64,000 nucleotides of DNA from Escherichia coli (GTDB lineage Bacteria > Pseudomonadota > Gammaproteobacteria > Enterobacterales > Enterobacteriaceae). Below the pieces are notes generated by a model. The model was not told the DNA's origin, searched no databases, and worked only from the letters and a program-made list of their open reading frames with translations. The stretch lies in NCBI RefSeq assembly GCF_044324785.1, contig NZ_CP172127.1. One strand, given 5' to 3'. Shown here piece by piece: positions 21,103 through 64,000 of the stretch. Each line of letters opens with the position of its first letter. The stretch's first letter is position 1. Made by a program: the position numbers and the translations under genes.

Positions 21103-21109
21103 ACGTAAA

Positions 21110-23458: not shown

Positions 23459-23635
23459 GTTAATACATTTAACAAAATAACTATCTGAACGCTGTGCCGC
23501 TGCAAAAATTGTCCCTTGCTGCGGCTTTTTAACCAAATTACCCGATTCTACAAAATCAGCAGAAAGTTACAACACTTGCTTAGGGCAATAATTTCCTGTG
23601 AGGTGATTACCCTTTCAAGCAATATTCAAACGTAA

Positions 23636-24547
23636 CTATCCTTTAATTTTCGGATCCAGCGCATCGCGTAAACCATCGCCCAACAAATTGAACGCCAGTA
23701 CGGTCAGAAAAATAGCCAGGGTCGGAAAAACAGCGACATGCGGCGCGATAACCATATCCGCTCGTGCCTCATTGAGCATTGCTCCCCACTCTGGTGTCGG
23801 CGGCTGCGCACCGAGGCCGAGAAATGACAGGCTGGCGGCAGAGATAATCGAGGTGCCGATGCGCATGGTGAAAAACACCACGATAGAAGAGACGGTCCCA
23901 GGCAAGATATGACGCAATAAAATGGTCATATCGCTGGCACCAATACTGCGTGCTGACTCAATAAAGGTTTGCTGTTTCAACACCAGCGTGTTGCCGCGCA
24001 CCAGGCGGGCAAACGCGGGGATGGAAAAAATGGCGACAGCGATAATCACGTTAGCAATGCCGCTTCCCAACACCGCAACAACAGCGATCGCCAGTAAAAT
24101 ACCCGGGAAGGCAAACAGCACATCGCAAATGCGCATGATTAGCCGATCTGACCAGCCTTCATAATATCCAGCAAGCAAGCCCAGCAACGTCCCGATCGCC
24201 GCACCGATAAACACGGCAAACACACCCGCCGCCAGTGAGATTTGCGCACCAACCAGGACACGGCTGAAAATGTCACGCCCGAGTGAATCGACGCCAAACC
24301 AGTGCTGCAAAGAAGGTCCGTTATTCAGATTGTCATAATCGAAATAATTTTCGGCGTCATAGGGAGCGATCCAGCGTGCAAAAATGGCCACTACAATCAA
24401 TAAAATAACGAATAATGCGGCGGTCATCGCCATATGCTGACGGCGAAATCGTCGCCAGAATTCATGCCACGGTGTACGTACCTGGTCAGGTTTGACCAGT
24501 GGCATGGCGTTTAACACCGCCTGACGTCGCCAGTTAAATAGTCGCAT
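23636..24547 (-). CDS. gsiD: Glutathione ABC transporter permease GsiD (303 aa)
   Basis: ABC permease matching GsiD (YliD); operon position after gsiC. Confidence 0.9.
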
Positions 24548-37386: not shown

Positions 37387-38652
37387 ATGGCTTCTACTTT
37401 TACCAGCGACACATTGCCTGCCGATCACAAAGCAGCTATCCGTCAGATGAAGCACGCGCTGCGGGCGCAGCTTGGCGACGTCCAGCAGATCTTTAATCAG
37501 CTAAGCGATGACATTGCCACGCGAGTGGCTGAAATCAACGCACTCAAAGCACAGGGCGATGCCGTCTGGCCGGTGCTGTCTTATGCCGATATCAAAGCAG
37601 GTCATGTTACTGCAGAGCAGCGCGAACAAATTAAACGTCGCGGTTGTGCGGTGATAAAAGGCCATTTCCCCCGCGAACAAGCGCTAGGCTGGGATCAGTC
37701 GATGCTGGACTATCTGGACCGCAACCGCTTTGACGAGGTCTACAAAGGCCCCGGCGATAATTTCTTCGGGACACTCAGCGCTTCACGTCCCGAGATTTAC
37801 CCCATCTACTGGTCGCAGGCGCAAATGCAGGCCCGCCAGAGTGAAGAAATGGCGAATGTGCAGTCGTTTCTCAATCGTCTGTGGACATTTGAAAGTGATG
37901 GAAAGCAATGGTTTAACCCGGATGTGAGCGTCATCTACCCTGACCGTATCCGCCGCCGTCCGCCCGGAACGACCTCCAAAGGTCTTGGAGCGCATACCGA
38001 CTCCGGGGCGCTGGAACGCTGGCTGCTTCCAGCGTATCAGCACGTTTTCGCCAACGTCTTTAATGGCAATCTGGCGAAATACGATCCCTGGCATGCGGCA
38101 CATCGTACGGAAGTTGAAGAGTACACGGTGGACAACACCACCAAATGTTCCGTGTTTCGGACATTCCAGGGCTGGACAGCGCTCTCTGATATGCTGCCTG
38201 GTCAGGGGTTGCTGCACGTCGTGCCCATTCCTGAAGCCATGGCGTACGTACTGTTACGTCCGCTGCTTGATGATGTGCCGGAGGATGAACTGTGCGGCGT
38301 AGCGCCCGGAAGAGTGTTGCCGGTATCAGAGCAATGGCATCCACTGTTAATTGAGGCGTTAACCAGCATTCCAAAACTCGAGGCCGGAGACTCCGTCTGG
38401 TGGCACTGCGACGTCATCCATTCCGTTGCCCCCGTTGAAAATCAACAGGGTTGGGGCAACGTGATGTACATTCCTGCGGCACCGATGTGCGAGAAAAATC
38501 TTGCCTACGCGCACAAGGTGAAGGCCGCACTGGAAAAAGGCGCATCGCCGGGCGACTTCCCGCGCGAGGACTATGAAACAAACTGGGAAGGACGCTTTAC
38601 GCTTGCCGACCTCAACATTCACGGTAAGCGAGCGTTGGGAATCGACAGCTGA
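37387..38652 (+). CDS. ybiU: YbiU, DUF1479 protein (2OG-oxygenase-like), 421 aa
   Basis: ORF from MASTFTSDTLPADHKAAIRQMKHALRAQL... matches YbiU. Confidence 0.85.
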   Translation: MASTFTSDTLPADHKAAIRQMKHALRAQLGDVQQIFNQLSDDIATRVAEINALKAQGDAVWPVLSYADIKAGHVTAEQREQIKRRGCAVIKGHFPREQALGWDQSMLDYLDRNRFDEVYKGPGDNFFGTLSASRPEIYPIYWSQAQMQARQSEEMANVQSFLNRLWTFESDGKQWFNPDVSVIYPDRIRRRPPGTTSKGLGAHTDSGALERWLLPAYQHVFANVFNGNLAKYDPWHAAHRTEVEEYTVDNTTKCSVFRTFQGWTALSDMLPGQGLLHVVPIPEAMAYVLLRPLLDDVPEDELCGVAPGRVLPVSEQWHPLLIEALTSIPKLEAGDSVWWHCDVIHSVAPVENQQGWGNVMYIPAAPMCEKNLAYAHKVKAALEKGASPGDFPREDYETNWEGRFTLADLNIHGKRALGIDS

Positions 38653-39722
38653 GTGTCGTACAGCCCTTCCCGTTCCACGGCGGTGTTCCCTTTTCCTGGG
38701 CGAACCCGCCGCACTGACTCCCGCACCGCCAATCGTCCGTGCAGCAGCAGCGAGCCCACCGGAGCATCCGGGCGAATCAGCCGCTGTTGCAACATTTGCA
38801 CCGCTTCATTGCCTAGCTCATCGCGTGGCACATGCACAGCCGTCAGGGGAACATCCTCGATTGCCGCAAGGTTAAAGCCGTCGATACTCATCACCGAGAC
38901 ATCCTGTGGTACGCGCAGACCACGACGATGTAGCGCATTTACCGTTCCCGCCGCCATAAAATCCCCGCCGACCAGAAACGCCGTCGGCAACGTCTTGCCA
39001 TTGGCGGCATCCAGCCACGCTCCGACCTTTTCTTCCGCTTCTTTAGCGCTAAAACTGCTGATATTCAGCAAATGACGGTCATGGTGAAAGGCCAGATTAT
39101 GCTGACGCCATGATTCTTTAATCCCTGCAAACCGCTGCTCCATAGTGTAGCGGCGCAGGCACATCACATTCATCACCTCCCGGTGACCCATTTCAAACAG
39201 ATAGCGGGCGGCGAACGCGCCAATTAACCGATGGTCCGGCGCAATCGCCGGGAGGCGCATTCGTTCATCACGGCAGTTGATCAGCACACAAGGCTTAGCG
39301 AGATCGGCGGCCAGATCATGGATGTGCGGATCGTCAATCCCCAGCAGGATCGCCGCCTGCGTATCTGCTTCATTCATCCGCGAGAGAAATAGCGCGGGAT
39401 CGCTGTCAAACTCCTCCAGCGCGCAGTAACGCAGCCGCACTTCATGCGGCGATAACGCTTTGCTGATGCTCTGGATCACACGGTAATAAAAGATATCAGA
39501 TCGTTGGTCAAAAGCGCGTTGCGGCGCGAAAATAATCAGGTTGTTCAGCAACATACGACCTGCTGCCATGCCATCCATCACGCCCAACTCACGCGCGCAG
39601 GCCAGCACCTGTTCGCGAGCGCGTGCACTGGTATTCGCTTTGCCAGCCAGCACCCGCGAAACCGTACTCGGCGATAGCCCGGTACGTGCGGCGATATCGG
39701 CGATTTTCAGCTTCTTGTCCAT
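38619..39722 (-). CDS. LacI-family transcriptional regulator (accessory, not in K-12 at this position), about 367 aa with an unusually long C-terminal tail
   Basis: MDKKLKIADIAARTGLSPSTVSRVLAGKANTSARAREQVLACARELGV... is a LacI-type HTH followed by a periplasmic-binding-protein-like sugar domain; its 3' end overlaps the ybiU 3' end by 34 nt. Confidence 0.7.
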   Translation of the reverse strand: MDKKLKIADIAARTGLSPSTVSRVLAGKANTSARAREQVLACARELGVMDGMAAGRMLLNNLIIFAPQRAFDQRSDIFYYRVIQSISKALSPHEVRLRYCALEEFDSDPALFLSRMNEADTQAAILLGIDDPHIHDLAADLAKPCVLINCRDERMRLPAIAPDHRLIGAFAARYLFEMGHREVMNVMCLRRYTMEQRFAGIKESWRQHNLAFHHDRHLLNISSFSAKEAEEKVGAWLDAANGKTLPTAFLVGGDFMAAGTVNALHRRGLRVPQDVSVMSIDGFNLAAIEDVPLTAVHVPRDELGNEAVQMLQQRLIRPDAPVGSLLLHGRLAVRESVRRVRPGKGNTAVEREGLYDTQLSIPNARLP

Positions 39723-40016
39723 TTTGTGATCTGCCTCTAATTCGGAAATGACAGAATTTTCATGAGCAAAAAAGCCCATTCTGTCTGGCATTAAATCCAT
39801 TTCAGTAATGTATATCAGTCACTCATGGAAAAACGTGCACAAAACCCGCTTTCTTTCGCTTTTAGGGTCTCTTACTGTGAATTGGTAGAACAACTTCCAT
39901 ACAAAAATAATGGAAAAACGAACAACAAAGACTTTATTTATCAAAAAGTTAAAAGTGGTGTGACAACTCCATTCTGACGTTGCCGCACAAACCCTATACC
40001 ATTCTGTGGAGTGCAT
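39723..40016. promoter_or_regulatory. Divergent control region between the LacI-family regulator and the MFS-GH31 genes
   Basis: 294-bp AT-rich, ORF-free intergenic region between divergently oriented genes; position inferred, no operator identified. Confidence 0.4.
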
Positions 40017-41318
40017 ATGAGTCAGGGTATCAATAACGATATGACTGCCAGTAAACCGCGCCATATCGTCAAAAATCTGCGTTGGTGGATACTGGTCCTT
40101 TTTTTGCTCGGTGTTACTGTCAACTACATCACGCGTAACTCGCTGGGTATTCTCGCCCCCGAACTGAAAAGCAGCCTGGGGATTACCACCGAACAATATT
40201 CCTGGATTGTAGGTGCTTTCCAGCTCGCCTATACCCTATTCCAACCGTTGTGCGGATGGCTGATTGACGTCATTGGCCTCAAACTGGGCTTTATGATCTG
40301 CGCGGGACTGTGGGCACTGGCCTGTCTGATGCATGCGGGGGCGGGAAACTGGGTACATCTGGCGCTGTTGCGCTTCTTTATGGGCGGTGCGGAAGCCGCA
40401 GCAACCCCAGCAAACGCCAAAACCATCGGTGAATGGTTTCCAAAATCAGAACGCCCGATCGCCGCAGGCTGGGCAGGCGTCGGTTTTTCCATCGGTGCCA
40501 TGCTGGCCCCACCGATTATCTATTTTGCCCACGCTTCATTCGGCTGGCAGGGTGCATTTATGTTCACTGGCATCCTGGCGATGCTGTGGGTCGTGCTGTG
40601 GTGGGCGTTCTATCACAGCCCGGATAAGCATCCTAACCTCAGCAAAGCCGAGCTGGACTTTATTCGCCAGGATAACGAAGCGCCCCCGGTCAAGTTACCC
40701 TTTCTGACCGCACTGAAAACCGTGGGCAAAAATAAACGCTTTTACGGTATCGCTATCCCGGCCTTTATGGCAGAACCGGCGTGGGCGGTGATGAGTTTCT
40801 GGGTTCCGCTATACCTGTCCAAAACCTATGGCATGGACCTGAAGCAGATCGCATTATTCGCCTGGTTGCCGTTCCTCGCCGCTGATCTTGGCAGTATTGC
40901 CAGCGGCTATCTGACCAAACTTTACACCCGCCTGTTTGGGCTGAGTCGTGTGAACTCCGTTGTCGCATCATCGGTCAGTGGCGCATTCCTGATGGTTTCG
41001 CTGGCGGTGATGGCCTTTACCAATAACCCGTATATCGCCATCGTCCTTATCTCCATCGGCGGCTTCGGTCACCAGATCATCTCCTGCATGCTAAGCGCAC
41101 TGGTGGTGGAATCCTTCGACAAAGGTCAGATGGCCACTGTTAACGGCATGCGCGGTTCTGCCGCGTGGATCGCAAGTTTCCTGTTCTCCCTGATAATCGG
41201 GGTTACCGCAGACAAAATCGGCTTTAACCCCCTGTTTATCGCCATGGGCTTCTTTGACCTGATTGGCGCTTTCTTCCTGGTCACCTTTATTGCTGAACGT
41301 CGCGCAAAACGCGCCTGA
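40017..41318 (+). CDS. MFS transporter resembling the anion:cation symporter family (ExuT/GudP/DgoT-like), about 433 aa
   Basis: 12-TM ORF with N-terminal sequence ...NYITRNSLGILAPELKSSLGITTEQYSWIVGAFQLAYTLFQP typical of ACS-family transporters; RBS ggag 6 nt before the ATG at 40017. Confidence 0.7.
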   Translation: MSQGINNDMTASKPRHIVKNLRWWILVLFLLGVTVNYITRNSLGILAPELKSSLGITTEQYSWIVGAFQLAYTLFQPLCGWLIDVIGLKLGFMICAGLWALACLMHAGAGNWVHLALLRFFMGGAEAAATPANAKTIGEWFPKSERPIAAGWAGVGFSIGAMLAPPIIYFAHASFGWQGAFMFTGILAMLWVVLWWAFYHSPDKHPNLSKAELDFIRQDNEAPPVKLPFLTALKTVGKNKRFYGIAIPAFMAEPAWAVMSFWVPLYLSKTYGMDLKQIALFAWLPFLAADLGSIASGYLTKLYTRLFGLSRVNSVVASSVSGAFLMVSLAVMAFTNNPYIAIVLISIGGFGHQIISCMLSALVVESFDKGQMATVNGMRGSAAWIASFLFSLIIGVTADKIGFNPLFIAMGFFDLIGAFFLVTFIAERRAKRA

Positions 41319-41332
41319 GAGTGGATGTAAAC

Positions 41333-43696
41333 ATGAAAACGCTGAAAAACTGGACCCTGCACAAACAGTCTGCCCACCACGTTGAACTGCTGGTCGATGG
41401 CCAGCATATCCTGTGCCTGTACGTGCTGGAAGAAAATCTGTTCCGCGTGCTGTTAAAACGCAAAGGCGAGCTGGCGCTGGATCGCACCTGGAGCATTGCT
41501 CCGGCGCAGGATGTGCCATGGGAAGGGCGCAGCCGCGAAGATCTCAGCGGCTTTAGCCTGCCCGCGTGGACATTGATCCAGCACGACGACACCGTGGTTA
41601 TCGCCACCGAGTCACTGCGTGTCACCGTTCACCAGCCGCTGTGGCTGGAGTGGCACTATCGTAACAACGAAGGCGAATGGCTGCCGTTGGTGAATGACCG
41701 CCCGACCAGCGCTTATCTGCTGAATGCCCACGGCGATGGCGTGGCACACTATCAGAGCCGTCGTAAAGATGAACGCTTTTATGGCCTCGGAGATAAAGCC
41801 GGCGACCTGCAACGCAACGGTAAACGTTACGAGATGCGTAACCTCGACGCGATGGGCTACAACGCCGTTAGTACTGACCCGCTGTACAAACACATTCCAT
41901 TCACCATCACCCGCCGCGATGACATTAGCTTCGGCCTGTTTTATGACAACCTCAGCAGCTGCTGGCTGGATCTGGGCAACGAGATCGACAACTACCACAC
42001 CGCCTATCGCCGCTGGCAGGCGGAAGCGGGTGATATCGACTACTACCTGTTTACCGGCGAACGCGTACTTGATATCACCAAAGCCTTCGTACGCCTGACC
42101 GGAAAAACCCTGTTCGGACCGAAATGGAGCCTGGGCTACAGCGGTTCAACTATGCACTACACCGATGCGCCGGACGCACAAAATCAGTTGATGAACTTTA
42201 TCCGCCTGTGTGAAGAACATGCAATTCCCTGCGATTCGTTCCAGCTCTCTTCCGGTTATACCTCAATTAACGGCAAACGCTATGTGTTCAACTGGAACTA
42301 CGACAAAGTGCCGCAGCCGAAAGTGATGAGCCAGGCATTTCACAATGCTGGTTTGCACCTGGCCGCCAATATCAAGCCGTGCCTGTTGCAGGATCACCCA
42401 CGCTATAACGAAGTGGCAGAAAGAGGACTGTTCATCCGTGATTCAGAAACAGATGAACCAGAACGTTCCAGCTTCTGGGATGACGAAGGTTCTAACCTCG
42501 ACTTTACTAATCCGCAGACCATCCAGTGGTGGCAGGAAGGCGTGACCACACAGCTTCTGGAGATGGGTATCGACTCCACCTGGAACGACAACAACGAATT
42601 CGAAGTATGGGACGGTGAAGCACGCTGTCACGGCTTTGGTCAGACGATCGCGATCAAACATATTCGCCCAGTGATGCCACTGCTGATGATGCGAGCCTCG
42701 ATGGAAGCCCAGCAGCGTTTCGCTCCGGAAAAACGTCCGTACTTGATCTCCCGCTCCGGCTGCGCGGGAATGCAGCGCTACGTGCAGACCTGGAGTGGCG
42801 ATAACCGCACTAGCTGGGACACTCTGCGCTACAACACCCGCATGGGTCTGGGGATGAGCCTCTCCGGGTTGTATAACCTCGGTCACGACGTCGGCGGTTT
42901 CTCCGGTGATAAACCGGACCCGGAACTGTTTGTACGCTGGGTACAAAACGGCGTGATGCATCCGCGCTTTACGATTCACTCATGGAACGATGACCATACC
43001 GTAAACGAACCGTGGATGTATCCGGGCGTCACTCCGGCGATCCGCAGCGCTATTGAGTTGCGCTATCGCCTGCTGCCCTACTTTTATACCCTGATGTGGC
43101 AGGCATACGCCGATGATGAACCAATGCTACGTCCGACTTTCCTTGACCACGAGCACGACGTTCAGACTTTTGAAGAGTGTGATGACTTCCTGCTTGGTCG
43201 CGATATTTTGGTTGCCAGCGTCGTAGAGCAAGGCGAGCGCCAGCGCCGTGTATGGCTGCCAGATAACGAAACTGGCTGGTACGATTTCTACAACGGCGAA
43301 TGGTTCAGTGGCGGTCAGTGGATCACCCTCGACGCACCGCTGGAGAAACTGCCGCTGATGGTGCGTGCCGGGGCTGGTCTACCGCTCAGCAAACGCATCA
43401 CCTATGTGAGCGCAGAACAAGACGATACCCGCGAACTGAAACTGTTCCCGCTGAAAGGTGTGGGCACAACGTCCGGCCTGCTGTTTGAAGACGATGGCGA
43501 AAGCTGGGGCTACCAAACTGGTAATGCGCTTTGGGTGGAATGGGAAATGGTTTGCGATGGGGCGACCATCAACCTGAAAGTCAACGCGCGCGGGGATTAT
43601 CGTCCTGCATGGAGTGCACTGAAAGTGTCATTACCATTGGAAGAAAAACGCACGCTGCTGGTCAATGGTGTTGAAGGGAGTGAATGGATGCGTTAA
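41333..43696 (+). CDS. Glycoside hydrolase family 31 alpha-glycosidase (about 787 aa)
   Basis: Carries GH31 hallmark motifs: TWNDNNEF (catalytic nucleophile region), RSGCAGMQRY...WSGDN (acid/base region), GHDVGGF; tightly linked (2-14 bp) downstream of the transporter. Confidence 0.75.
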   Translation: MKTLKNWTLHKQSAHHVELLVDGQHILCLYVLEENLFRVLLKRKGELALDRTWSIAPAQDVPWEGRSREDLSGFSLPAWTLIQHDDTVVIATESLRVTVHQPLWLEWHYRNNEGEWLPLVNDRPTSAYLLNAHGDGVAHYQSRRKDERFYGLGDKAGDLQRNGKRYEMRNLDAMGYNAVSTDPLYKHIPFTITRRDDISFGLFYDNLSSCWLDLGNEIDNYHTAYRRWQAEAGDIDYYLFTGERVLDITKAFVRLTGKTLFGPKWSLGYSGSTMHYTDAPDAQNQLMNFIRLCEEHAIPCDSFQLSSGYTSINGKRYVFNWNYDKVPQPKVMSQAFHNAGLHLAANIKPCLLQDHPRYNEVAERGLFIRDSETDEPERSSFWDDEGSNLDFTNPQTIQWWQEGVTTQLLEMGIDSTWNDNNEFEVWDGEARCHGFGQTIAIKHIRPVMPLLMMRASMEAQQRFAPEKRPYLISRSGCAGMQRYVQTWSGDNRTSWDTLRYNTRMGLGMSLSGLYNLGHDVGGFSGDKPDPELFVRWVQNGVMHPRFTIHSWNDDHTVNEPWMYPGVTPAIRSAIELRYRLLPYFYTLMWQAYADDEPMLRPTFLDHEHDVQTFEECDDFLLGRDILVASVVEQGERQRRVWLPDNETGWYDFYNGEWFSGGQWITLDAPLEKLPLMVRAGAGLPLSKRITYVSAEQDDTRELKLFPLKGVGTTSGLLFEDDGESWGYQTGNALWVEWEMVCDGATINLKVNARGDYRPAWSALKVSLPLEEKRTLLVNGVEGSEWMR

Positions 43697-43875
43697 ATCA
43701 TTACCGGGGCCGGGAGGCGACTGCACCTTACCCGGTCCAGCCATCGAATCCTTTACCTCAGTATTTCACGCTGCAGGAAGGCAGCAAACCTGTAAACCCC
43801 GGGAGCTTAAATAAGTAAGTGACCGGGGTGAACAGGTGAAGCCAATGCATCTGCCGCATGAAAGACGGCGGGGAA

Positions 43876-45471
43876 TTAACCGTCGATCCCTTTACTACGC
43901 AGGTAATCTTCGTAATTACCGCTAAAGTCAATAACGCGTTCCGGGGTGATTTCCAGAATGCGGGTCGCCAGGGAGCTTACGAACTCACGGTCGTGTGAAA
44001 CAAAGATCAGCGTGCCCTGATACAGTTCCAGCGCCATGTTCAGCGACTCGATGGATTCCATATCCAGGTGGTTGGTCGGTTCGTCCATGATCAGAATGTT
44101 CGGCTTCTGCATCATTAACTTACCAAACAGCATCCGCCCTTTTTCCCCACCGGAAAGCACTTTCGCTGGTTTTTTGATGTCGTCCTGGCTGAACAGCAAA
44201 CGACCGAGAATGCTGCGTACCGCCTGCTCGTCATCGCCTTCCTGCTTCCACTGGCTCATCCATTCGAACACGGTCAGATCATTTTCAAACTCATATTCGT
44301 GGTCCTGAGCATAGTAACCAATGCGCGCGTTTTCAGACCATTTTACGGTGCCGCTGTCCGGTTGCAGATCGCCCACCAGCGTTTTCAGCAGCGTTGATTT
44401 ACCGACGCCGTTGGTACCCAGTACCGCAAGTTTTTCACCGACCTCCAGCAGCAGGTTGAGATTTTTAAACAGTGGACCGTTATCAAACCCTTTGGTCAGA
44501 CCTTCCACTTCCAGCGCGTTACGGAACAGTTTCTTATCCTGTTCAAAACGGATGAACGGGTTCTGACGGCTGGAGGCTTTCACCTCTTCCAGTTTGATTT
44601 TATCAATCTGGCGCGCGCGCGAAGTTGCCTGGCGAGATTTCGAGGCGTTGGCGCTAAAGCGGCTAACGAAAGATTGCAGCTCAGCAATCTGCGCTTTCTT
44701 CTTGGCGTTATCAGCCAGCAGACGTTCACGCGCCTGGGTCGCCGCCGTCATGTACTCATCGTAGTTGCCCGGATAAACGCGCAGCTCGCCGTAATCCAGA
44801 TCCGCCATATGGGTACAAACCATGTTAAGGAAGTGACGGTCGTGCGAGATGATGATCATGGTGCTGTCACGCTCGTTCAGCACCTGTTCCAGCCAACGAA
44901 TGGTGTCGATGTCGAGGTTGTTGGTCGGTTCGTCGAGCAGGAGAATGTCTGGATCAGCAAAAAGCGCCTGTGCCAGCAGCACACGCAGCTTCCAGCCAGG
45001 AGCAACTTCACTCATCGGGCCGTAGTGCTGTTCCACTGGAATTCCCACGCCAAGCAACAATTCACCGGCGCGAGCTTCCGCAGAGTAACCGTCCATTTCG
45101 CCGTATTTCACTTCCAGATCGGCCACTTTATAGCCGTCTTCTTCACTCATTTCCGGCAAAGCATAGATGCGGTCACGCTCCTGCTTCACTTCCCACAACT
45201 CTTTATGCCCCATGATCACCGTATCCAGCACAGTGAACTCTTCAAAGGCAAACTGATCCTGACGCAGCTTACCAATGCGCTCGTTGGGATCGAGGGAAAC
45301 GTTACCCAACGTCGGCTCTAAGTCGCCGCCGAGGATCTTCATAAAGGTGGATTTACCACTACCGTTCGCGCCAATCAGGCCGTAACGGTTGCCGCCGCCA
45401 AATTTGACGGAAATGTTTTCAAACAACGGCTTACTGCCGAACTGCATGGTGACGTTACTGGAAACTAACAC
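43876..45471 (-). CDS. ybiT: ABC-F family ATPase YbiT (tandem ABC domains), about 530 aa, GTG start
   Basis: (M)[41 protein letters not shown]... two ABC cassettes without a TM domain; matches YbiT. Confidence 0.9.
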
Positions 45472-54313: not shown

Positions 54314-54973
54314 ATGCAGTTTGACTGGAGTGCCATCTGGCCTGCCATTCCGCTTCTGATTGAAGGTGCCAAAATGACCCTGTGGATTTCGGTCCTCGGT
54401 CTGGCTGGCGGCCTGGTGATCGGATTGCTGGCAGGTTTTGCACGCACCTTCGGTGGTTGGATAGCCAACCACGTCGCGCTGGTCTTTATTGAAGTGATCC
54501 GCGGCACACCTATCGTCGTCCAGGTGATGTTTATCTACTTTGCCCTGCCGATGGCGTTTAACGACTTACGCATCGACCCGTTTACTGCGGCGGTGGTCAC
54601 CATCATGATCAACTCCGGCGCGTACATTGCAGAAATCACGCGTGGTGCGGTGCTGTCTATTCACAAAGGTTTTCGTGAAGCAGGACTGGCGCTCGGTCTT
54701 TCACGTTGGGAAACCATTCGCTACGTCATTTTACCGCTGGCATTGCGTCGTATGCTGCCGCCGCTGGGTAACCAGTGGATCATCAGCATTAAAGACACCT
54801 CGCTGTTTATTGTTATCGGCGTGGCGGAACTGACCCGTCAGGGGCAAGAAATTATTGCCGGTAACTTCCGCGCCCTTGAGATCTGGAGCGCCGTGGCGGT
54901 GTTCTATCTGATTATTACCCTGGTGCTGAGCTTTATTCTGCGTCGTCTGGAAAGAAGGATGAAAATCCTGTGA
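54314..54973 (+). CDS. glnP: Glutamine ABC transporter permease GlnP (219 aa)
   Basis: [48 protein letters not shown]... matches GlnP. Confidence 0.93.
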
Positions 54974-55692
54974 TTGAATTTAAAAACGTCTCCAAGCATT
55001 TTGGTCCAACCCAGGTGCTGCACAATATCGATTTGAACATTGCTCAGGGCGAAGTCGTGGTGATTATCGGGCCGTCCGGTTCCGGTAAATCGACCCTGCT
55101 GCGCTGCATCAACAAACTGGAAGAAATCACCTCCGGCGATCTGATTGTCGATGGCCTGAAGGTTAACGATCCGAAAGTTGACGAGCGCCTGATTCGCCAG
55201 GAAGCAGGTATGGTGTTCCAGCAGTTTTACCTCTTCCCGCATCTGACGGCGCTGGAAAACGTCATGTTTGGTCCGCTACGCGTGCGTGGCGCGAACAAAG
55301 AAGAGGCGGAAAAACTGGCGCGTGAGCTGCTGGCGAAAGTCGGCCTGGCAGAACGCGCTCACCACTACCCTTCCGAGCTTTCTGGTGGTCAACAGCAGCG
55401 TGTGGCGATCGCACGCGCGCTGGCGGTGAAGCCGAAAATGATGCTGTTTGATGAACCGACTTCCGCTCTTGACCCGGAACTGCGCCATGAAGTGCTGAAG
55501 GTTATGCAGGATCTGGCTGAAGAAGGGATGACGATGGTGATCGTGACACACGAAATCGGTTTTGCCGAGAAAGTAGCTTCGCGCCTGATCTTTATCGACA
55601 AAGGCCGGATTGCGGAAGATGGCGATCCGCAGGTGTTGATCAAGAACCCACCGAGCCAGCGCTTGCAGGAATTTTTGCAGCACGTCTCTTAA
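54970..55692 (+). CDS. glnQ: Glutamine ABC transporter ATP-binding protein GlnQ (240 aa)
   Basis: [48 protein letters not shown]... Walker A and [15 protein letters not shown]; start overlaps the glnP stop. Confidence 0.93.
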
Positions 55693-55699
55693 CTTCTCA

Positions 55700-55728
55700 G
55701 CCTCCCTTTCCCCCGAAAGGGAGGCACA
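55700..55728 (+). terminator. Terminator hairpin after glnQ (cctcccttt cccccg aaagggagg)
   Basis: Inverted repeat seen directly after the glnQ stop. Confidence 0.55.
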
Positions 55729-55808
55729 CCAGATTCCTCTCATTTAAAATCGCCCCTCCCCCAGCATCTATACTTATCTTTTTGCTCTGTTTTCTCACTG
55801 GAGGAGTC

Positions 55809-58034
55809 ATGCGGTGGATCCTGTTCATCCTCTTCTGCCTGCTGGGCGCACCTGCCCACGCGGTATCCATACCCGGCGTTACAACCACAACGACAACGGA
55901 CTCAACGACTGAACCGGCCCCGGAACCGGATATCGAACAAAAAAAAGCGGCCTATGGCGCACTGGCGGATGTGCTGGATAATGACACCTCGCGTAAAGAG
56001 TTGATCGACCAGTTGCGCACCGTCGCCGCGACGCCCCCTGCGGAACCCGTACCGAAGATCGTGCCGCCGACGCTGGTTGAAGAGCAAACCGTGCTGCAAA
56101 AAGTCACCGAAGTCAGCCGCCATTATGGTGAAGCCCTTTCCGCCCGCTTCGGACAACTTTATCGCAATATCACCGGCTCCCCGCATAAGCCGTTTAATCC
56201 ACAAACCTTCAGCAATGCGTTGACCCATTTTTCAATGTTAGCGGTATTAGTGTTTGGTTTTTACTGGCTGATTCGCCTGTGCGCACTTCCGCTGTATCGC
56301 AAAATGGGTCAGTGGGCGCGGCAAAAAAATCGTGAGCGCAGTAACTGGTTGCAGCTTCCGGCGATGATTATCGGGGCGTTTATTATCGACCTGCTGTTAC
56401 TGGCGCTGACATTGTTTGTCGGCCAGGTATTAAGCGACAACCTGAATGCGGGCAGTCGCACCATCGCTTTCCAACAAAGTTTGTTTCTCAACGCCTTTGC
56501 CCTGATTGAATTTTTCAAAGCTGTACTACGCCTGATTTTTTGCCCAAATGTGGCGGAGCTGCGCCCGTTCACGATTCAGGACGAGAGCGCCCGTTACTGG
56601 AGTCGTCGCCTGAGCTGGTTAAGCAGCCTGATTGGCTATGGCCTGATTGTGGCCGTGCCGATTATCTCTAATCAGGTGAATGTACAGATAGGTGCGCTGG
56701 CGAACGTCATCATTATGCTGTGCATGACGGTCTGGGCGTTGTACCTGATCTTTCGTAATAAAAAAGAGATTACCCAGCATTTGCTCAACTTCGCGGAGCA
56801 TTCGCTGGCCTTTTTCAGCCTGTTTATCCGCGCCTTTGCGCTGGTGTGGCACTGGCTGGCAAGCGCCTATTTTATCGTGCTGTTTTTCTTTTCGTTGTTC
56901 GATCCGGGCAACAGCCTGAAATTTATGATGGGTGCAACGGTGCGCAGCCTGGCGATTATTGGTATCGCAGCGTTTGTTTCCGGTATGTTTTCCCGCTGGC
57001 TGGCGAAAACCATCACCCTCTCGCCACATACTCAGCGTAACTATCCAGAGCTGCAAAAACGGCTGAATGGCTGGCTTTCGGCGGCGCTGAAAACAGCGCG
57101 TATTCTGACAGTCTGCGTGGCGGTAATGCTGCTGTTGAGCGCATGGGGATTGTTCGATTTCTGGAACTGGCTGCAAAACGGTGCGGGGCAGAAAACCGTA
57201 GATATCCTGATCCGTATCGCACTCATTCTTTTCTTCTCGGCGGTTGGCTGGACGGTGCTCGCCAGTTTGATCGAAAACCGGCTGGCTTCGGATATTCATG
57301 GCCGCCCGCTACCCAGCGCCCGCACGCGTACCCTGCTGACGCTGTTTCGTAACGCGCTGGCGGTGATTATCAGTACCATCACCATCATGATTGTGTTGTC
57401 GGAAATCGGCGTCAATATCGCGCCATTGCTGGCAGGTGCCGGGGCATTAGGTCTGGCTATCTCGTTTGGTTCGCAAACGCTGGTGAAAGATATTATCACC
57501 GGGGTATTTATTCAGTTTGAAAACGGCATGAACACTGGAGATTTGGTTACTATCGGGCCGTTGACCGGTACTGTGGAACGGATGTCGATTCGCTCCGTGG
57601 GCGTGCGTCAGGATACCGGGGCGTATCACATCATTCCGTGGTCTTCGATAACCACCTTTGCTAACTTCGTCCGCGGCATTGGTTCGGTGGTGGCAAATTA
57701 CGATGTTGATCGCCATGAAGATGCTGATAAAGCCAATCAGGCACTGAAAGATGCGGTAGCTGAATTGATGGAAAACGAAGAAATTCGCGGGTTGATTATC
57801 GGTGAACCGAACTTTGCCGGGATTGTCGGCTTAAGCAATACCGCGTTTACACTGCGTGTTTCGTTCACCACGCTGCCACTCAAACAGTGGACGGTCCGCT
57901 TTGCCCTCGACAGCCAGGTGAAAAAACATTTCGACCTGGCGGGTGTTCGCGCGCCGGTACAGACTTATCAGGTGCTGCCTGCTCCGGGCGCGGCCCCGGC
58001 TGAACCGTTGCCGCCGGGGGAACCAACGCTTTAA
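55809..58034 (+). CDS. ybiO: Mechanosensitive channel YbiO (MscS family), about 741 aa
   Basis: [18 protein letters not shown] signal peptide, multiple TM segments and a C-terminal MscS domain; the upstream ORF-track extension is rejected. Confidence 0.85.
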
Positions 58035-58960
58035 CGCTGGCGATTGACAAAACGGCGGCGCTGCTCGTCGTTCATAAAGGTCCAGGCAATAAAGCGACTC
58101 TGCTTTTGCCCCTGGGCCATCTCTTTTTTAACCACCTTCACCGCGCCCACGTCCGTCAGGGCACGATACAACGGCGGTAAGTTTTCACCACGAGATACCA
58201 GTGAGGTAAACCACATCACCTGCTTCGCGAAGCCTTTGCTCTCTTCAATCATCTTTTTGATAAAGGTGACTTCACCGCCTTCACACCACAACTCCTGTTG
58301 CTGGCCGCCAAAGTTCAGTGCATCGTCTTTGTTTAGCCCCAGGTTACGGCGTTTACGTTCACTACCTGCCCGTGCCGCAGCGGCGGAATCGTGGAATGGC
58401 GGGTTACACAAGGTCGCGTCGTATTGCTCGTTTTTATGGATGATGCCGTTAAAAATCGCCCCACTCTCTTTTTGCCGACGCAGACGAATGGCGCGGTTAA
58501 GCCCCGGATTAGCACTGATGATCGCCTGCGCACTGCTTAACGCCTGGCTGCTGGTTTCACTACCAGTAAAACGCCAGCCATATTCATGTACGCCAATCAG
58601 CGGGTAAATACAGTTCGCACCAACGCCGATATCCAGAATGCTGGCATTAGCTGGAATTGTTCCGCTTGCTTCTGCCAGTAAATCGGCAAGGTGATGAATA
58701 TAATCCGCCCGGCCCGGTACTGGTGGGCAGAGAAAACCGTCGGGGATATCCCAGTTCGCTACGGCGTAAAAATGGGCCAGCAACGCCTTATTGAGCGCCT
58801 TCACCGCCAGCGGATTGGCAAAGTCTACGCTTTGCTCCCCGGCGGGTGTAAGCGTGAGGAATTGCCTGAGTTCAGGATTGACCTGACAAAGCGTGGCGAG
58901 ATCGTAGCGGCTGTGATGACGGTTGCGCGGATGCAACCCCGGTTTCTGGGCGGACATAGC
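58031..58960 (-). CDS. rlmF: 23S rRNA m6A1618 methyltransferase RlmF (YbiN), 308 aa
   Basis: ORF from [34 protein letters not shown] with the SAM-binding NPPF motif (LCNPPFHDS). Confidence 0.88.
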
Positions 58961-59232
58961 ATTCTCCTTTAAGCAGCGGCGTAAGATACCCGCATAACGC
59001 GACAGGGTAAATATCTGGCTGCGTTTATCATTCCCCAAAACCTTAACATGGCTATGGTTTATGGCAATTCATCATAAAAATCAGCATCATGCATTTCATT
59101 GATTTGTCTTATTTTGTAAAAATATATCGTTCAAAAAATAAGCACATCTCTGTCAATTTTTTGCGTCATTTTCATCGCCCAGGCGACCTACACTTATCAG
59201 GCACTACCCGTTGTATTTATGAGGATGTCATT

Positions 59233-59493
59233 ATGAAAAAGTGCCTCACACTACTGATTGCCACCGTCCTGAGCGGAATCTCTCTCACGGCTTATGCCGC
59301 GCAACCGATGAGTAACCTGGACAGCGGTCAGCTACGGCCCGCCGGTACCGTTTCGGCAACTGGCGCATCAAACCTAAGCGATCTGGAGGATAAACTGGCA
59401 GAAAAAGCGCGCGAGCAAGGCGCGAAAGGTTATGTCATTAATTCCGCAGGCGGAAATGACCAGATGTTCGGTACTGCAACCATCTACAAATAA
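59233..59493 (+). CDS. mcbA: McbA (YbiM), small periplasmic DUF1471 protein, 86 aa
   Basis: MKKCLTLLIATVLSGISLTAYAAQPMSNLDSGQLRPAGTVSATGASNLSDLEDKLAEKAREQGAKGYVINSAGGNDQMFGTATIYK; paralogous to YbiJ in the same window. Confidence 0.82.
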   Translation: MKKCLTLLIATVLSGISLTAYAAQPMSNLDSGQLRPAGTVSATGASNLSDLEDKLAEKAREQGAKGYVINSAGGNDQMFGTATIYK

Positions 59494-59626
59494 CCCCACC
59501 AACGTAACTGCATTCGCCTCTGGATGCAGTTTTCGCCTGTTTTGTAATCAAAAAACATCAAATATGAACGCAATGTAAATAAATGTATTTCTTTTTCGCG
59601 CAATGGGTGATAGAAAATCGCGCCAA

Positions 59627-59657
59627 GTGATAATGCTTATCAAAATTATTATCACTT
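59627..59657 (+). promoter_or_regulatory. Fur box in the fiu promoter (gtgataatgcttatcaaaattattatcac)
   Basis: Matches the GATAATGATAATCATTATC Fur consensus in overlapping hexamers; fiu is an established Fur-regulated gene. Confidence 0.7.
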
Positions 59658-59757
59658 GCACGAACACTATCACGAGATTAACAGTGGCATCGCATCCGCA
59701 GAGAGGCTTTCTCGTGGCAGTGAAAATTTCAACATATAAGAAAAAGTCACCTGCAAA

Positions 59758-62040
59758 ATGGAAAACAATCGCAATTTCCCTGCCAGACAATTTCATTCGC
59801 TCACGTTCTTTGCCGGTCTTTGTATTGGCATCACGCCTGTGGCTCAGGCACTCGCCGCCGAAGGGCAAGCAAACGCGGATGACACGCTGGTTGTCGAAGC
59901 ATCAACGCCTTCGCTTTATGCGCCACAACAATCTGCTGATCCGAAATTCTCGCGTCCGGTAGCGGATACTACCCGCACGATGACGGTGATTTCTGAACAA
60001 GTGATTAAAGATCAGGGCGCAACCAACCTTACCGACGCGCTCAAAAACGTCCCCGGCGTGGGTGCGTTTTTTGCGGGTGAGAACGGTAACTCCACCACTG
60101 GCGACGCCATTTATATGCGTGGTGCCGATACCTCTAACAGTATTTATATTGATGGCATTCGCGATATCGGCAGCGTCTCGCGCGACACCTTCAATACCGA
60201 GCAGGTCGAAGTGATTAAAGGGCCGTCCGGCACCGACTACGGGCGCAGCGCACCGACGGGCTCGATCAATATGATCAGCAAGCAGCCGCGCAATGACTCA
60301 GGCATTGACGCCTCCGCGAGTATTGGCAGCGCCTGGTTCCGCCGCGGCACGCTGGACGTCAATCAGGTCATTGGTGATACCACTGCGGTGCGCCTGAATG
60401 TGATGGGTGAAAAAACGCACGATGCCGGACGCGACAAAGTCAAAAATGAGCGTTACGGCGTCGCCCCTTCTGTCGCTTTTGGCCTTGGCACAGCGAATCG
60501 TTTGTATCTTAATTATCTACATGTCACCCAGCACAACACGCCAGACGGCGGCATTCCGACCATCGGTTTGCCGGGCTATTCTGCCCCATCTGCGGGAGCG
60601 GCGGCCCTGAATCATTCCGGAAAAGTAGATACGCATAACTTTTATGGCACGGATTCCGATTACGACGATTCGACCACCGATACCGCTACCATGCGTTTTG
60701 AGCACGATATCAACGATAACACCACCATTCGCAATACTACCCGTTGGTCGCGCGTGAAGCAGGATTACCTGATGACGGCGATTATGGGCGGGGCGTCGAA
60801 TATTACCCAGCCCACCAGCGATGTGAATAGCTGGACCTGGTCACGCACGGCGAATACTAAAGATGTGAGTAATAAAATTCTCACCAACCAGACCAACCTG
60901 ACCTCGACGTTCTATACCGGTTCTATCGGTCATGATGTCAGTACCGGCGTGGAATTTACCCGTGAAACGCAGACTAACTACGGCGTTAATCCGGTGACGT
61001 TACCTGCGGTAAATATTTATCATCCTGACAGCAGCATTCATCCCGGCGGCCTGACGCGCAACGGCGCAAACGCCAATGGTCAGACGGATACCTTCGCAAT
61101 TTACGCTTTCGATACGCTGCAAATCACCCGTGATTTTGAGCTGAACGGCGGGATCCGTCTGGATAATTATCATACTGAATATGACAGTGCCACCGCCTGC
61201 GGCGGCAGCGGACGCGGTGCCATCACCTGCCCTGCTGGCGTGGCAAAAGGTTCTCCGGTCACCACCGTCGATACCGCCAAGTCGGGCAATCTGGTGAACT
61301 GGAAAGCCGGGGCGCTGTATCACCTGACGGAAAACGGCAATGTCTATATTAACTATGCTGTTTCCCAGCAGCCTCCGGGCGGCAACAACTTCGCCCTTGC
61401 GCAGTCTGGCAGCGGTAACAGTGCCAACCGCACCGATTTTAAACCGCAAAAAGCCAACACCAGCGAGATTGGCACCAAATGGCAGGTTCTGGATAAACGC
61501 CTGTTGCTCACCGCCGCGCTGTTCCGTACTGATATCGAAAATGAAGTTGAGCAAAATGATGACGGAACTTACTCGCAATACGGTAAGAAACGCGTCGAAG
61601 GCTATGAGATATCCGTGGCCGGGAATATCACTCCCGCGTGGCAGGTGATTGGCGGCTATACCCAGCAAAAAGCAACCATCAAAAACGGCAAAGATGTTGC
61701 CCAGGATGGTTCCTCATCGCTGCCGTATACCCCGGAGCACGCCTTTACCTTATGGAGCCAGTATCAGGCAACCGATGATATTTCCGTTGGTGCGGGCGCA
61801 CGCTATATCGGCAGTATGCATAAAGGTTCTGACGGCGCGGTGGGAACGCCAGCGTTTACCGAAGGTTATTGGGTCGCCGACGCTAAACTGGGGTATCGGG
61901 TTAATCGCAATCTCGACTTCCAGCTAAACGTCTACAACCTGTTTGATACCGATTACGTCGCCTCAATCAACAAGAGCGGCTACCGTTATCACCCGGGCGA
62001 GCCAAGAACCTTCCTGCTCACGGCCAATATGCATTTCTGA
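59758..62040 (+). CDS. fiu: TonB-dependent catecholate siderophore receptor Fiu (760 aa)
   Basis: Signal peptide, plug domain and beta-barrel ending ...[11 protein letters not shown] (C-terminal aromatic residue) match Fiu. Confidence 0.9.
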
Positions 62041-62047
62041 TTCAGAT

Positions 62048-62070
62048 GTGGGGCGCAGGCCCCACTTTTT
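62048..62070 (+). terminator. Hairpin between fiu and ybiX (gtggggcgcaggccccac + ttttt)
   Basis: Seen directly; probably a partial terminator inside the fiu-ybiX operon. Confidence 0.5.
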
Positions 62071-62081
62071 GGAGAACTTGT

Positions 62082-62759
62082 ATGATGTACCACATTCCCG
62101 GCGTGCTATCGCCAAAGGACGTCGCCCGTTTTCGCGAACAACTGGAACAAGCCGAATGGGTGGATGGACGCGTCACCACTGGCGCACAAGGTGCGCAAGT
62201 TAAGAACAATCAACAGGTAGACACCCGCAGCACGTTATACGCCGCCCTGCAAAATGAGGTGCTGAACGCGGTTAACCAACATGCTTTGTTCTTTGCCGCG
62301 GCCTTACCGCGTACCCTTTCCACGCCGCTGTTTAATCGCTATCAGAACAATGAAACCTATGGTTTTCATGTGGATGGCGCAGTACGCAGTCACCCACAAA
62401 ACGGCTGGATGCGCACTGACCTTTCTGCCACACTGTTTTTAAGCGATCCACAAAGCTACGACGGCGGCGAACTGGTCGTTAATGACACCTTCGGACAACA
62501 TCGGGTAAAACTCCCGGCAGGCGATCTGGTGTTGTATCCCTCCAGCAGCTTGCATTGCGTGACACCCGTAACCCGCGGCGTACGAGTGGCATCATTTATG
62601 TGGATCCAGTCGATGATCCGTGATGATAAAAAGCGCGCCATGCTGTTTGAACTGGACAACAATATTCAGTCGCTGAAAAGCCGCTACGGCGAAAGTGAAG
62701 AGATCCTGTCGCTGCTCAATCTTTATCATAATCTGCTGCGGGAATGGTCGGAGATCTGA
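62082..62759 (+). CDS. ybiX: YbiX, PKHD-type Fe(II)/2-oxoglutarate-dependent hydroxylase, 225 aa
   Basis: [34 protein letters not shown]... with an HxD...H iron-binding pattern; co-oriented with fiu. Confidence 0.85.
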
Positions 62760-62832
62760 CGCTTGAACTGCCCGAGTTCGTCCCTATATTAGCTACACTT
62801 AACTGTACAAGTATTGATATGGGGAGGACGAT

Positions 62833-63099
62833 ATGGCATCCGGTTGGGCTAACGATGACGCCGTCAACGAACAGATCAACAGTACAATTGAAGATGCGAT
62901 TGCCCGCGCTCGGGGTGAAATTCCGCGTGGTGAAAGCCTGTATGAATGTGAAGAGTGCGGCGCACCTATCCCACAGGCCCGTCGGGAAGCCATTCCTGGC
63001 GTGCGCTTATGCATTCATTGTCAGCAGGAGAAAGATTTACAAAAACCAGCTTATACAGGATATAATCGCAGAGGTTCGAAAGACAGCCAGTTACGTTAA
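62833..63099 (+). CDS. ybiI: YbiI, DksA/TraR-family C4 zinc-finger protein, 88 aa
   Basis: MASGWANDDAVNEQINSTIEDAIARARGEIPRGESLYECEECGAPIPQARREAIPGVRLCIHCQQEKDLQK with a CxxC...CxxC finger. Confidence 0.85.
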   Translation: MASGWANDDAVNEQINSTIEDAIARARGEIPRGESLYECEECGAPIPQARREAIPGVRLCIHCQQEKDLQKPAYTGYNRRGSKDSQLR

Positions 63100-63363
63100 C
63101 TACAACTGGCGGGATGTATAGCGAGTATAATTTGTATTTTGCGTGGCATTCCGTGCCTTTAACGCTGTCGTGACTGCCACGCTGCATAAAACAAGTCCAT
63201 AAGTTCAACAAATAAATGGATTATCAGTATGTTAGATATCAATCAATTTATTTGAACAAGGCGGTCAATTCTCTTCGATTTTATCTCTCGAAAAAAAACG
63301 TGATACTCATCACATCGACGAAACAACGTCACTTATACAAAAATCACCTGCGAGAGATTAATT

Positions 63364-63624
63364 ATGAAAACTATCAATACTGTTGTTGCTGCTATGGCTC
63401 TTTCAACTCTGTCATTTGGCGTGTTTGCCGCGGAACCGGTAACGGCATCCCAGGCACAGAACATGAATAAAATCGGCGTGGTTTCTGCCGATGGCGCATC
63501 CACCCTCGATGCCCTGGAAGCGAAACTGGCTGAGAAAGCTGCGGCAGCTGGGGCGAGTGGATACAGCATCACTTCTGCCACCAACAACAATAAATTAAGC
63601 GGTACTGCGGTAATTTATAAGTAA
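63364..63624 (+). CDS. ybiJ: YbiJ, periplasmic DUF1471 protein, 86 aa
   Basis: MKTINTVVAAMALSTLSFGVFAAEPVTASQAQNMNKIGVVSADGASTLDALEAKLAEKAAAAGASGYSITSATNNNKLSGTAVIYK. Confidence 0.85.
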   Translation: MKTINTVVAAMALSTLSFGVFAAEPVTASQAQNMNKIGVVSADGASTLDALEAKLAEKAAAAGASGYSITSATNNNKLSGTAVIYK

Positions 63625-63734
63625 TTCGTAAGCCGGATCAGTCGTTTACGCTACGTCCAGCACAAGTATTTCCCTGTCTGTTTGCCGACAGACGCATATG
63701 CTCTAACCCTCATTGATCCTATATTACCCTTGTT

Positions 63735-63762
63735 TGCCCGTCCGTTACTGGACGGGCTTTTT
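63735..63762 (+). terminator. ybiJ intrinsic terminator (gcccgtccgttactggacgggc + tttttt)
   Basis: Perfect hairpin plus T-run seen directly. Confidence 0.75.
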
Positions 63763-63765
63763 TGT

Positions 63766-64000
63766 GCACAGAAAACCCCCAGCTAGGCTGGGGGTTCCGG
63801 AAAGCTTTCAGCTTTGAGCCAGTTATTAAAACCCCTTTTGATTTGTTAAAACACCTTGCGGTCTGGCAACTGCAAGTGTCAAACAAGAAATCAAAAGGGG
63901 GTCCCAATGGGGGACGAAAAGAGCTTAGCGCACACCCGCTGGAACTGTAAATATCACATAGTTTTTGCGCCGAAATACCGAAGACTGGCGTTTTACGGAG
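63766..64000 (+). mobile_element. Left end of an IS200 insertion sequence (IS200/IS605 family), truncated by the window end
   Basis: Two hairpins characteristic of the IS200 left end (cccccagctaggctggggg, then a stem sequestering the RBS: ccccttttgatttgtt...aacaagaaatcaaaaggggg) followed by the tnpA start; IS200 is absent from K-12 as far as I recall. Confidence 0.75.
63907..64000 (+). CDS. tnpA: IS200 transposase TnpA (HUH Y1 transposase), N-terminal 31 codons only
   Basis: Translation MGDEKSLAHTRWNCKYHIVFAPKYRRLAFYG matches the conserved IS200 TnpA N-terminus. Confidence 0.8.
   Translation, partial: MGDEKSLAHTRWNCKYHIVFAPKYRRLAFYG

Follow-up and report, generated by a model that had tools for sequence, protein, structure and literature searches.

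A complete IS200 in the T tract of the ybiJ/ZbiJ terminator of Escherichia coli, and the association of IS200-type left ends with hairpins followed by T runs

The window analysed here, one strand of a 64,000-nucleotide stretch of an Escherichia coli genome, ends inside the left end of an IS200 element. We are confident that the best overall explanation is a complete and apparently intact IS200 lodged in the T tract of a terminator shared by ybiJ and the small RNA ZbiJ, with arrival and silencing as proposed below. The element itself is already known: IS200 was described long ago, identical copies are annotated in RefSeq, and the anatomy is that of the Salmonella type element. What this analysis adds is the exact junction at the 3' end of ZbiJ, an independent double insertion at that site, and a quantified rule for the targeting of terminators.

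The left 237 of the element's 711 bp occupy the end of the window on the plus strand (Table 1). A full-length match to the Rfam family RF01405 (STnc490, the IS200 left end) covers positions 63774-63897 with 146.4 bits, against a gathering score of 56, and an E value of 1.5e-31. When filled and empty sites are compared, the first base of the element falls at 63764, the G of GTGCACAG, or at most two bases earlier, owing to a TT ambiguity at the junction. The sequence-only reading had begun the element at 63766; it had recognised the right element but missed its exact start, and the hairpin, the Shine-Dalgarno stem-loop and the 31 tnpA codons that it described all lie where it placed them, as judged by Rfam, the folds and the translation. 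Between the T6 tract and the left-end hairpin lies GTGCACAGAA. The hairpin folds at -18 kcal/mol, which none of 200 shuffles could equal, and its 21-base core occurs once in the 64,000-nt window. Further downstream, the long stem-loop in the tnpA 5'UTR (-34.8 kcal/mol, z -5.2) pairs the Shine-Dalgarno sequence AAGGGGG (63895-63901) with an upstream U-rich arm and thereby buries it. The tnpA gene starts at the ATG at 63907, and its translation within the window reads MGDEKSLAHTRWNCKYHIVFAPKYRRLAFYG. A minus-strand feature across this start is placed by homology with Salmonella IS200, and a simple promoter scan called no promoter for it. In Salmonella, the left-end hairpin (nt 12-34) is a bidirectional terminator that stops read-through into tnpA (PMC4513863, PMC5435999), and it reportedly ends about 85% of incoming transcripts (PMC5435999). 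The corresponding hairpin in the window is probably also the one that the transposase binds. A weak Rfam match to anti-hemB (E 0.1) was dismissed as a generic resemblance to a terminator or right end.

Table 1. Features at the IS200 insertion in the window (positions in window coordinates).
Feature	Position	Strand	Basis
ybiJ CDS, 86 aa, DUF1471 / YdgH-BhsA-like	63364..63624	+	ORF list; Pfam PF07338, 7e-18; RefSeq annotation of identical DNA
ybiE, 19-aa small ORF, antisense to the 5' part of ZbiJ	63638..63697	-	RefSeq annotation
Homologue of K-12 sRNA ZbiJ (b4814, also asYbiE)	63669..63763	+	K-12 annotation; alignment
Terminator hairpin of ybiJ and ZbiJ, GCCCGTCCGTTACTGGACGGGC, 9-bp stem, 7 G-C pairs	63736..63757	+	Terminator scan; fold
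T6 tract, the insertion target	63758..63763	+	Filled versus empty site comparison
IS200, first 237 of 711 bp	63764..64000	+	Junction comparison; Rfam; RefSeq annotation of identical DNA
IS200 left-end perfect hairpin AACCCCCAGCTAGGCTGGGGGTT, 10-bp stem	63774..63796	+	Fold; Rfam alignment
Minus-strand feature across the tnpA start	63826..63915	-	Homology only, from Salmonella IS200 numbering (PMC4513863)
Long stem-loop in the tnpA 5'UTR	63832..63900	+	Fold; Rfam structure; function by homology
tnpA codons 1-31 of 152 (plus 1 base), Y1 HUH transposase	63907..64000	+	Translation; annotated CDS; Pfam

The rest of the element was read from overlapping public contigs, found by exact-sequence look-up with the window's 760-aa Fiu protein. 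Two of them, GCA_044102835.1 (L131) and an ENA metagenome scaffold (L132), match window positions 54758-64000 (9,243 bp) without a single mismatch. Beyond 64000 both continue with the remainder of the 152-aa tnpA, a right-end hairpin and a tip ending ...GGATATTTATT, so that the missing parts anticipated from the window alone are in place. To the right of the IS200, both contigs carry TAGCTGG, followed by hcxB (formerly ybiC), ybiB and dinG. The full element is 711 bp long and would end at window-equivalent 64474, before TAGCTGG and the hcxB stop codon. The element in both contigs is identical to the copy in E. coli strain N3, and the same 711-bp copy, unnamed in each case, is found at 100% identity in N3, FDAARGOS_1276 and AST85.

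This 711-bp insert contains a single ORF, the 152-aa tnpA, and no tnpB, as in the IS200 group of the IS200/IS605 family, to which we assign it. Past codon 31, TnpA was read from the two contigs and from strain N3, which are identical to the window over their overlap. The protein matches Pfam Y1_Tnp (PF01797) at 7.9e-37 over profile positions 2-121 of 121, and is homologous to the solved Y1 transposases 2EC2, 2F4F, the IS608 TnpA 2A6M (E 3e-19) and 2XM3 (E 5e-16). Its catalytic motifs are intact: HIH stands at residues 61-63, and Tyr125 is the catalytic tyrosine that was mutated (Y125F) in work on Salmonella IS200 (PMC4513863). An identical tnpA is annotated in RefSeq as a CDS (L001, 3608-4066), its product WP_000502112.1 being labelled only "IS200/IS605 family". 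The tips of the element, GTGCACAG... and ...ATATTTATT, form no terminal inverted repeats; there is a subterminal hairpin near each end, the right one (CCTCCGGCTATGCCGGAGG) lying 9 nt from the right tip. In a terminator scan the right end scored as terminator-like on both strands, the top-strand signal being the hairpin plus ATATTTATT. On the minus strand, the same right end (L131 9685-9718, window-equivalent 64442-64475) gives a partial match to the 3' end of Rfam Ysr202, at 28.5 bits against a gathering score of 315. We dismissed this match as a generic terminator or right-end resemblance; the Ysr202 model, which describes a Yersinia sRNA, probably includes the right end of IS1541.

We turn to the site that the element occupies. 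Directly upstream of the junction stands the rho-independent terminator of ybiJ, as the sequence-only reading had described; its hairpin folds at -17.6 kcal/mol (z -5.6) and is followed by the T6 tract. The K-12 annotation of ZbiJ ends exactly at the final T of this tract, and the ybiJ terminator is therefore the terminator of ZbiJ as well. In K-12, the sRNA ZbiJ derives from the 3'UTR of ybiJ, associates with Hfq and has been verified by northern blot (PMC8175672). With a G+C-rich hairpin and a T tract at a mapped RNA 3' end, the site is an intrinsic terminator. The ZbiJ region of the window aligns with that of K-12 without gaps at 93 of 97 identical positions, the final two of the mismatches falling at the IS junction itself. 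The small protein YbiE, encoded on the opposite strand, reads MRLSANRQGNTCAGRSVND in the window and ...SVNA in K-12, the final residue being D rather than A.

Empty versions of the ybiJ-hcxB site were found in strains 18KM2445, K-12 and EC556, and these permit the insertion to be reconstructed to the base. The empty T tract is T7 in 18KM2445 and T8 in K-12 and EC556. Strain 18KM2445 has the same haplotype as the window, and its GGGC-TTTTTTT-AGCTGG corresponds at the filled site to GGGC-TTTTTT, the 711-bp element, and T-AGCTGG. Comparison of filled and empty sites reveals no target-site duplication, the only shared bases being the TT ambiguity (0-2 bases) within the T run. The TTA on the right of the element is the hcxB stop codon read on the opposite strand. 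The element, oriented like ybiJ, is therefore flanked by the terminator hairpin on one side and by the end of the convergent hcxB on the other.

The consequences for the neighbouring genes appear to be slight. After the insertion, ybiJ and ZbiJ retain their hairpin and six U, and only the final U of the ZbiJ tail is replaced by the element. On the other side, hcxB retains its stop codon and meets CCTCCGGCATAGCCGGAGG-TTTTT 9 bases downstream, thereby gaining the right-end hairpin and its TTTTT as a putative terminator. Because both sides keep or gain these signals, the insertion is probably neutral for ybiJ, ZbiJ and hcxB, to judge from the sequence. Strains that carry it are natural variants of the 3' end of an Hfq-associated sRNA. 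The terminator is itself polymorphic among strains: the upper stem and loop read GTTACT with T7 or GCCACT with T8, and IS200 is found in both forms.

How general is this kind of junction? The 21-base core of the IS200 left-end hairpin was used to scan one genome per species, which gave at least 120 loci. These come from Yersinia pestis, Vibrio, Brenneria, Edwardsiella, Pluralibacter, Budvicia and Dickeya, and from metagenome-assembled genomes labelled Oxalobacter, Mailhella/Desulfovibrio, Bacillota, Peptococcaceae, Elusimicrobiaceae and Saccharibacteria. By eye, nearly all of the listed left flanks consist of a G+C-rich hairpin and a T run that adjoins the element. For a quantitative assessment, the 40 nt upstream of each of the 119 unique, non-tandem left flanks among the matches listed were folded with DNA parameters, and a fold of -8 kcal/mol or below was scored as stable. 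Such a fold was present in 108 of these 119 flanks among the matches listed (91%), a proportion drawn from junctions that are not independent, since a single Y. pestis genome contributed about 45 of them and the same 21-base hairpin served to select them all. The same cut-off was reached by 3.0% of random 40-mers and by 4.8% of 40-mers ending in TTTTT plus G. T runs of five or more located outside long ORFs in the same loci follow a stable hairpin in 11.5% of cases (Fisher p ~1e-66 versus the IS junctions). The last six bases of the flank include at least three T in all 119 cases among the matches listed, and five or six T in 92 of them. A strict detector of perfect-stem hairpins, which allows no mismatches, found a hairpin in 77 of 120 flanks among the matches listed; it misses others in which A tracts pair with the T run. 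The left ends of IS200-type elements are thus strongly and generally associated with a hairpin followed by a T run. The sequence-only reading had drawn on a preference for hairpin targets, which is borne out by this proportion and also by the independent second insertion at the ybiJ/ZbiJ terminator described below.

Some of the surveyed elements share the exact 21-base core and differ at their left tips (GTGAAACG, GGTTAAAAG, GTATAGAG and GTCAAACG). These differing-tip elements are found in assemblies labelled Bacillota, Mailhella/Desulfovibrio, Vibrio, Oxalobacter, Saccharibacteria and Elusimicrobiaceae, among which errors in the binning of metagenome-assembled genomes are possible. One Saccharibacteria copy with the hairpin core is just 64% identical overall. 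The shared core points to either a strong constraint on the hairpin or a wide horizontal spread. Many of these copies lie about 100 bases from contig ends, i.e. the assemblies break in the repeat.

Tandem copies provide another view of the same preference. In Y. pestis, head-to-tail IS1541/IS200 copies (L079, L080, L082 and L096) are arranged such that the right end of one, its hairpin plus ATATTTATT, adjoins the left end of the next. A tandem in E. coli FDAARGOS_1276 (L126, 1-1311) has one extra T between the copies, which encode two different TnpA variants.

There are two ways in which such an association could arise. First, IS200 could recognise its target structurally. We think it rather probable that there is real structural targeting of a hairpin plus T tract by IS200. 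The more specific proposition, that the IS200 group are true terminator-seeking transposons whose transposase (or end complex) recognises a single-stranded hairpin and T tract and inserts within the tract, we favour by a small margin over its negation. Second, IS200 could enter any T-rich sequence and persist only where the insertion does no harm, as in terminator tails. The surveyed junctions are all fixed genomic copies that have already been through selection, which leaves room for this second reading. So does the variable distance from the foot of the hairpin to the junction (0-10 bases, mode 5-6, among the matches listed), which follows no fixed geometric rule, and so does the discovery of IS200 as a polar insertion inside hisD, since it shows that genic insertions occur (PMC4513863). 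Yet if selection merely retained copies in T-rich sequence outside genes, a stable hairpin would not be expected before 91% of the IS junctions among the matches listed when it precedes only 11.5% of non-ORF T runs. It is also against this reading that two IS200 subtypes entered the same terminator T tract, both before its last T, and that copies also insert directly after the right-end hairpin and T-rich tail of another copy. We therefore regard selection from among indiscriminate T-rich insertions as unlikely, while giving it appreciable weight.

If terminator-seeking is real, it would extend from the Enterobacteria to Vibrio, Desulfovibrionaceae, Oxalobacter, Bacillota and Saccharibacteria, and it would account for the dormancy, the harmlessness and the tandem arrays of IS200. 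Biochemical work is not known to have defined the target choice of IS200, and the hairpin plus T-run rule, nearly universal for the IS200-type elements surveyed, offers a clear hypothesis for in vitro work. Terminator-like sequences have also been reported, in a 2025 preprint, to be most over-represented upstream of IS200/IS605 elements, where they were read as a means of transposase regulation and not as a mechanism of target recognition.

The manner of arrival can be sketched from better-understood relatives. By analogy with IS608 and ISDra2, this IS200 would transpose through a single-stranded circular intermediate ("peel and paste"): the transposase would excise one strand as a circle and join it 3' of a short target beside the left end. 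In the case of IS200, a T-rich tail behind a stable hairpin would serve as this target. The GAAAA and GAAAAA that stand immediately 5' of the left-end and right-end hairpins, respectively, may read this tail, as in the guide rule of IS608, and on this analogy pairing with TTTT or TTATT is plausible. The right end, with its hairpin and ATATTTATT, resembles such a target, which would explain the tandem copies. As for the hairpin, it might present the T tract in single-stranded DNA, the transposase might have an affinity for hairpins, or selection might contribute.

Once inserted, the copy would be nearly silent. The host terminator and the left-end hairpin would act in series to block read-through into tnpA, the stem-loop in the 5'UTR would hide the ribosome-binding site, and the antisense RNA art200 would oppose expression further, if these parts function as they do in Salmonella. 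The same parts can be given another interpretation, in which the copy is kept as a source of regulatory RNA (5'tnpA sRNA and art200) and is in effect a domesticated sRNA locus, as has been proposed for Salmonella. Its left end does match the Hfq-binding STnc490 family over the full length, the 5'tnpA RNA of Salmonella regulates invF and more than 200 genes, and IS200 has been described as nearly immobile. A domesticated locus would not, however, be expected to preserve an intact tnpA with its catalytic motifs. Identical copies at different loci across strains, and up to 35 places per genome, testify to past mobility and indeed to recent transposition in E. coli, and there is no known E. coli target of such an RNA. 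We consider domestication improbable, and retain the view that this is a transposon held nearly silent by its own hairpins and by the host terminator.

The orientation of this copy is fixed by the polarity of the terminator and not by replication. An orientation bias has been described for the IS200/IS605 family (PMC3971601). The plus strand of the window is C-rich throughout (cumulative skew -0.56), which places the IS200 top strand on the leading-strand template. The IS top strand is on the G-rich strand in 84 of 101 loci among the matches listed, a GC-skew comparison that is confounded by the upstream co-oriented gene, which itself biases the skew; the window copy belongs to the minority orientation.

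A second IS200 has entered the same terminator. Among 5,426 complete E. coli genomes, an IS200 junction between ybiJ and hcxB is present in only two, those of N3 and 98210. We asked if these represent one insertion or two. If a single ancestral event had been inherited or moved by recombination, both the elements and their flanks should be closely related. The two copies, however, differ at 27 of 711 positions, and exact matches to each, of the same subtype, lie at unrelated loci in other strains: the 98210 copy shows no differences from an IS200C copy that strain 405 carries between gyrB and yidB, while the N3/window copy shows none from the copies at yddM in FDAARGOS_1276 and near potE in AST85. 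The flanks likewise belong to different haplotypes, with a GTTACT loop and T7 in the N3/window type and GCCACT and T8 in 98210, as in K-12 and EC556. At the 98210 site, T7, the element and one T stand where K-12 and EC556 carry T8, so that both insertions leave exactly one T on the right. Strain EC556, whose T8 site is empty, is not close to 98210, with flanks of 99.1% and 97.7% identity; the two carry IS200 at 34 and 35 places, respectively. Because the copies and the flank haplotypes both differ, two IS200 subtypes entered the same T tract separately, an outcome that is hard to explain by selection alone.

There are observations that would suit a single event. The two insertions have the same orientation and the same position relative to hcxB, and the window and N3 share theirs on an identical 1.4-kb tract (62622-64000) amid DNA that is otherwise about 1-2% divergent, which means that transfer of a segment, or shared descent, does happen. 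Given the distinct subtypes, the distinct flanks and the rarity of the insertion (2 of 5,426 complete genomes), we nevertheless hold common origin of the window/N3 and 98210 insertions to be very improbable, and keep to two separate insertions. Finally, that the element is a truncated remnant or a chance resemblance has next to no probability: just 237 bp lie inside the window, but the Rfam E value is 1.5e-31, the contigs without mismatches hold the full 711 bp including the right end, and the hairpin core appears in none of 100 shuffles.

Comparison with known systems places the element firmly. [quoted passage not shown] IS200C and related IS200 variants of E. coli have the same length and ends as the window copy, which differs from the copy labelled IS200C in RefSeq at 27 of 711 positions (96.2% identity). 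IS1541 of Y. pestis is about 86.7% identical over its full length and has the same left-end hairpin core; like IS200, it sits after a hairpin and T run and forms tandem copies. It differs in its host species, in a much higher copy number, and in its left tip, GTGCCCAG as opposed to GTGCACAG. A similar remark on terminators was reportedly made for IS1541 by Odaert et al. in 1998.

The more distant IS608 and ISDra2 share with IS200 a homologous Y1 HUH transposase and subterminal hairpins, and they too insert, without a duplication, on the 3' side of a short specific sequence that adjoins the left end. In contrast to IS200, they carry tnpB and use a fixed target of 4-5 nt (TTAC, TTGAT) without an adjacent hairpin. 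The left cleavage point of IS200 lies about 10-12 nt from its hairpin, whereas this distance is 19 nt in IS608. An analogy in target choice is offered by bacterial group IIC introns, whose insertions lie immediately 3' of intrinsic terminators and which are believed to recognise, in single-stranded DNA, the terminator stem-loop together with the bases that follow it. Unlike IS200, they are retroelements with a ribozyme and a reverse transcriptase, with no homology to it, and the analogy is limited to the choice of target.

IS200 is too common in E. coli for its presence alone to identify a strain. Matches occur in 2,641 of the 5,426 complete genomes, near full length in 2,063, at a median of two and a maximum of 35 places per genome, and IS200 is also found on 770 plasmids, most of them conjugative. 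It is therefore only the insertion site that marks lineage. The sequence-only reading had called IS200 a strain marker; this holds for the insertion site (2 of 5,426 complete genomes) and fails for the element as such. Its statement that K-12 lacks IS200 is confirmed at the ybiJ-hcxB site, which is empty there; over the rest of that genome the absence is taken as background. The window's exact Fiu protein occurs in 401 blocks of the collection, and all 24 of the 24 contigs that were read either carry the element here or break at its left end, which makes the insertion a marker of the lineage with this Fiu. A Logan contig identical to the window, SRR6212334_43 (L133), stops at about 63799, after the first 36 bases of the IS200 left end, which suggests several IS200 copies in that sample; N3 has a single copy.

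The relationship between the window and N3 is itself uneven. They are identical only over 62622-64000, a tract containing ybiI, ybiJ, ZbiJ and the IS200, and differ at 43 positions in the 2.6 kb before 62622, with about 99.06% identity overall. This pattern resembles a recombination mosaic, in which an IS-carrying segment would be common to the two genomes. In N3, an IS4 splits fiu, which is intact in the window (59758-62040). We considered whether the window could be strain N3 itself, given that its last 701 bases are 100% identical, and ruled this out on the basis of the IS4 in fiu, an IS621 in N3 and the overall identity of about 99.06%.

Two further stretches of the window deserve mention. 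A locus encoding a GH31 glycoside hydrolase, an MFS transporter and a LacI regulator occupies 38640-43882, with ybiU and ybiT on either side. Of the 5,426 complete E. coli genomes, 575 have it (99.5% identity at best), and N3 has a copy of IS621 (IS110 family) in its place. The limited distribution of this locus, together with the empty K-12 insertion site, confirms the conclusion of the sequence-only reading that the window does not come from a K-12 genome. Lastly, positions 20001-24000 are the lowest-GC stretch of the window (42.6% versus about 51%) and have a strongly negative GC skew; according to the N3 annotation, this stretch covers bssR, rimO and dgcI.
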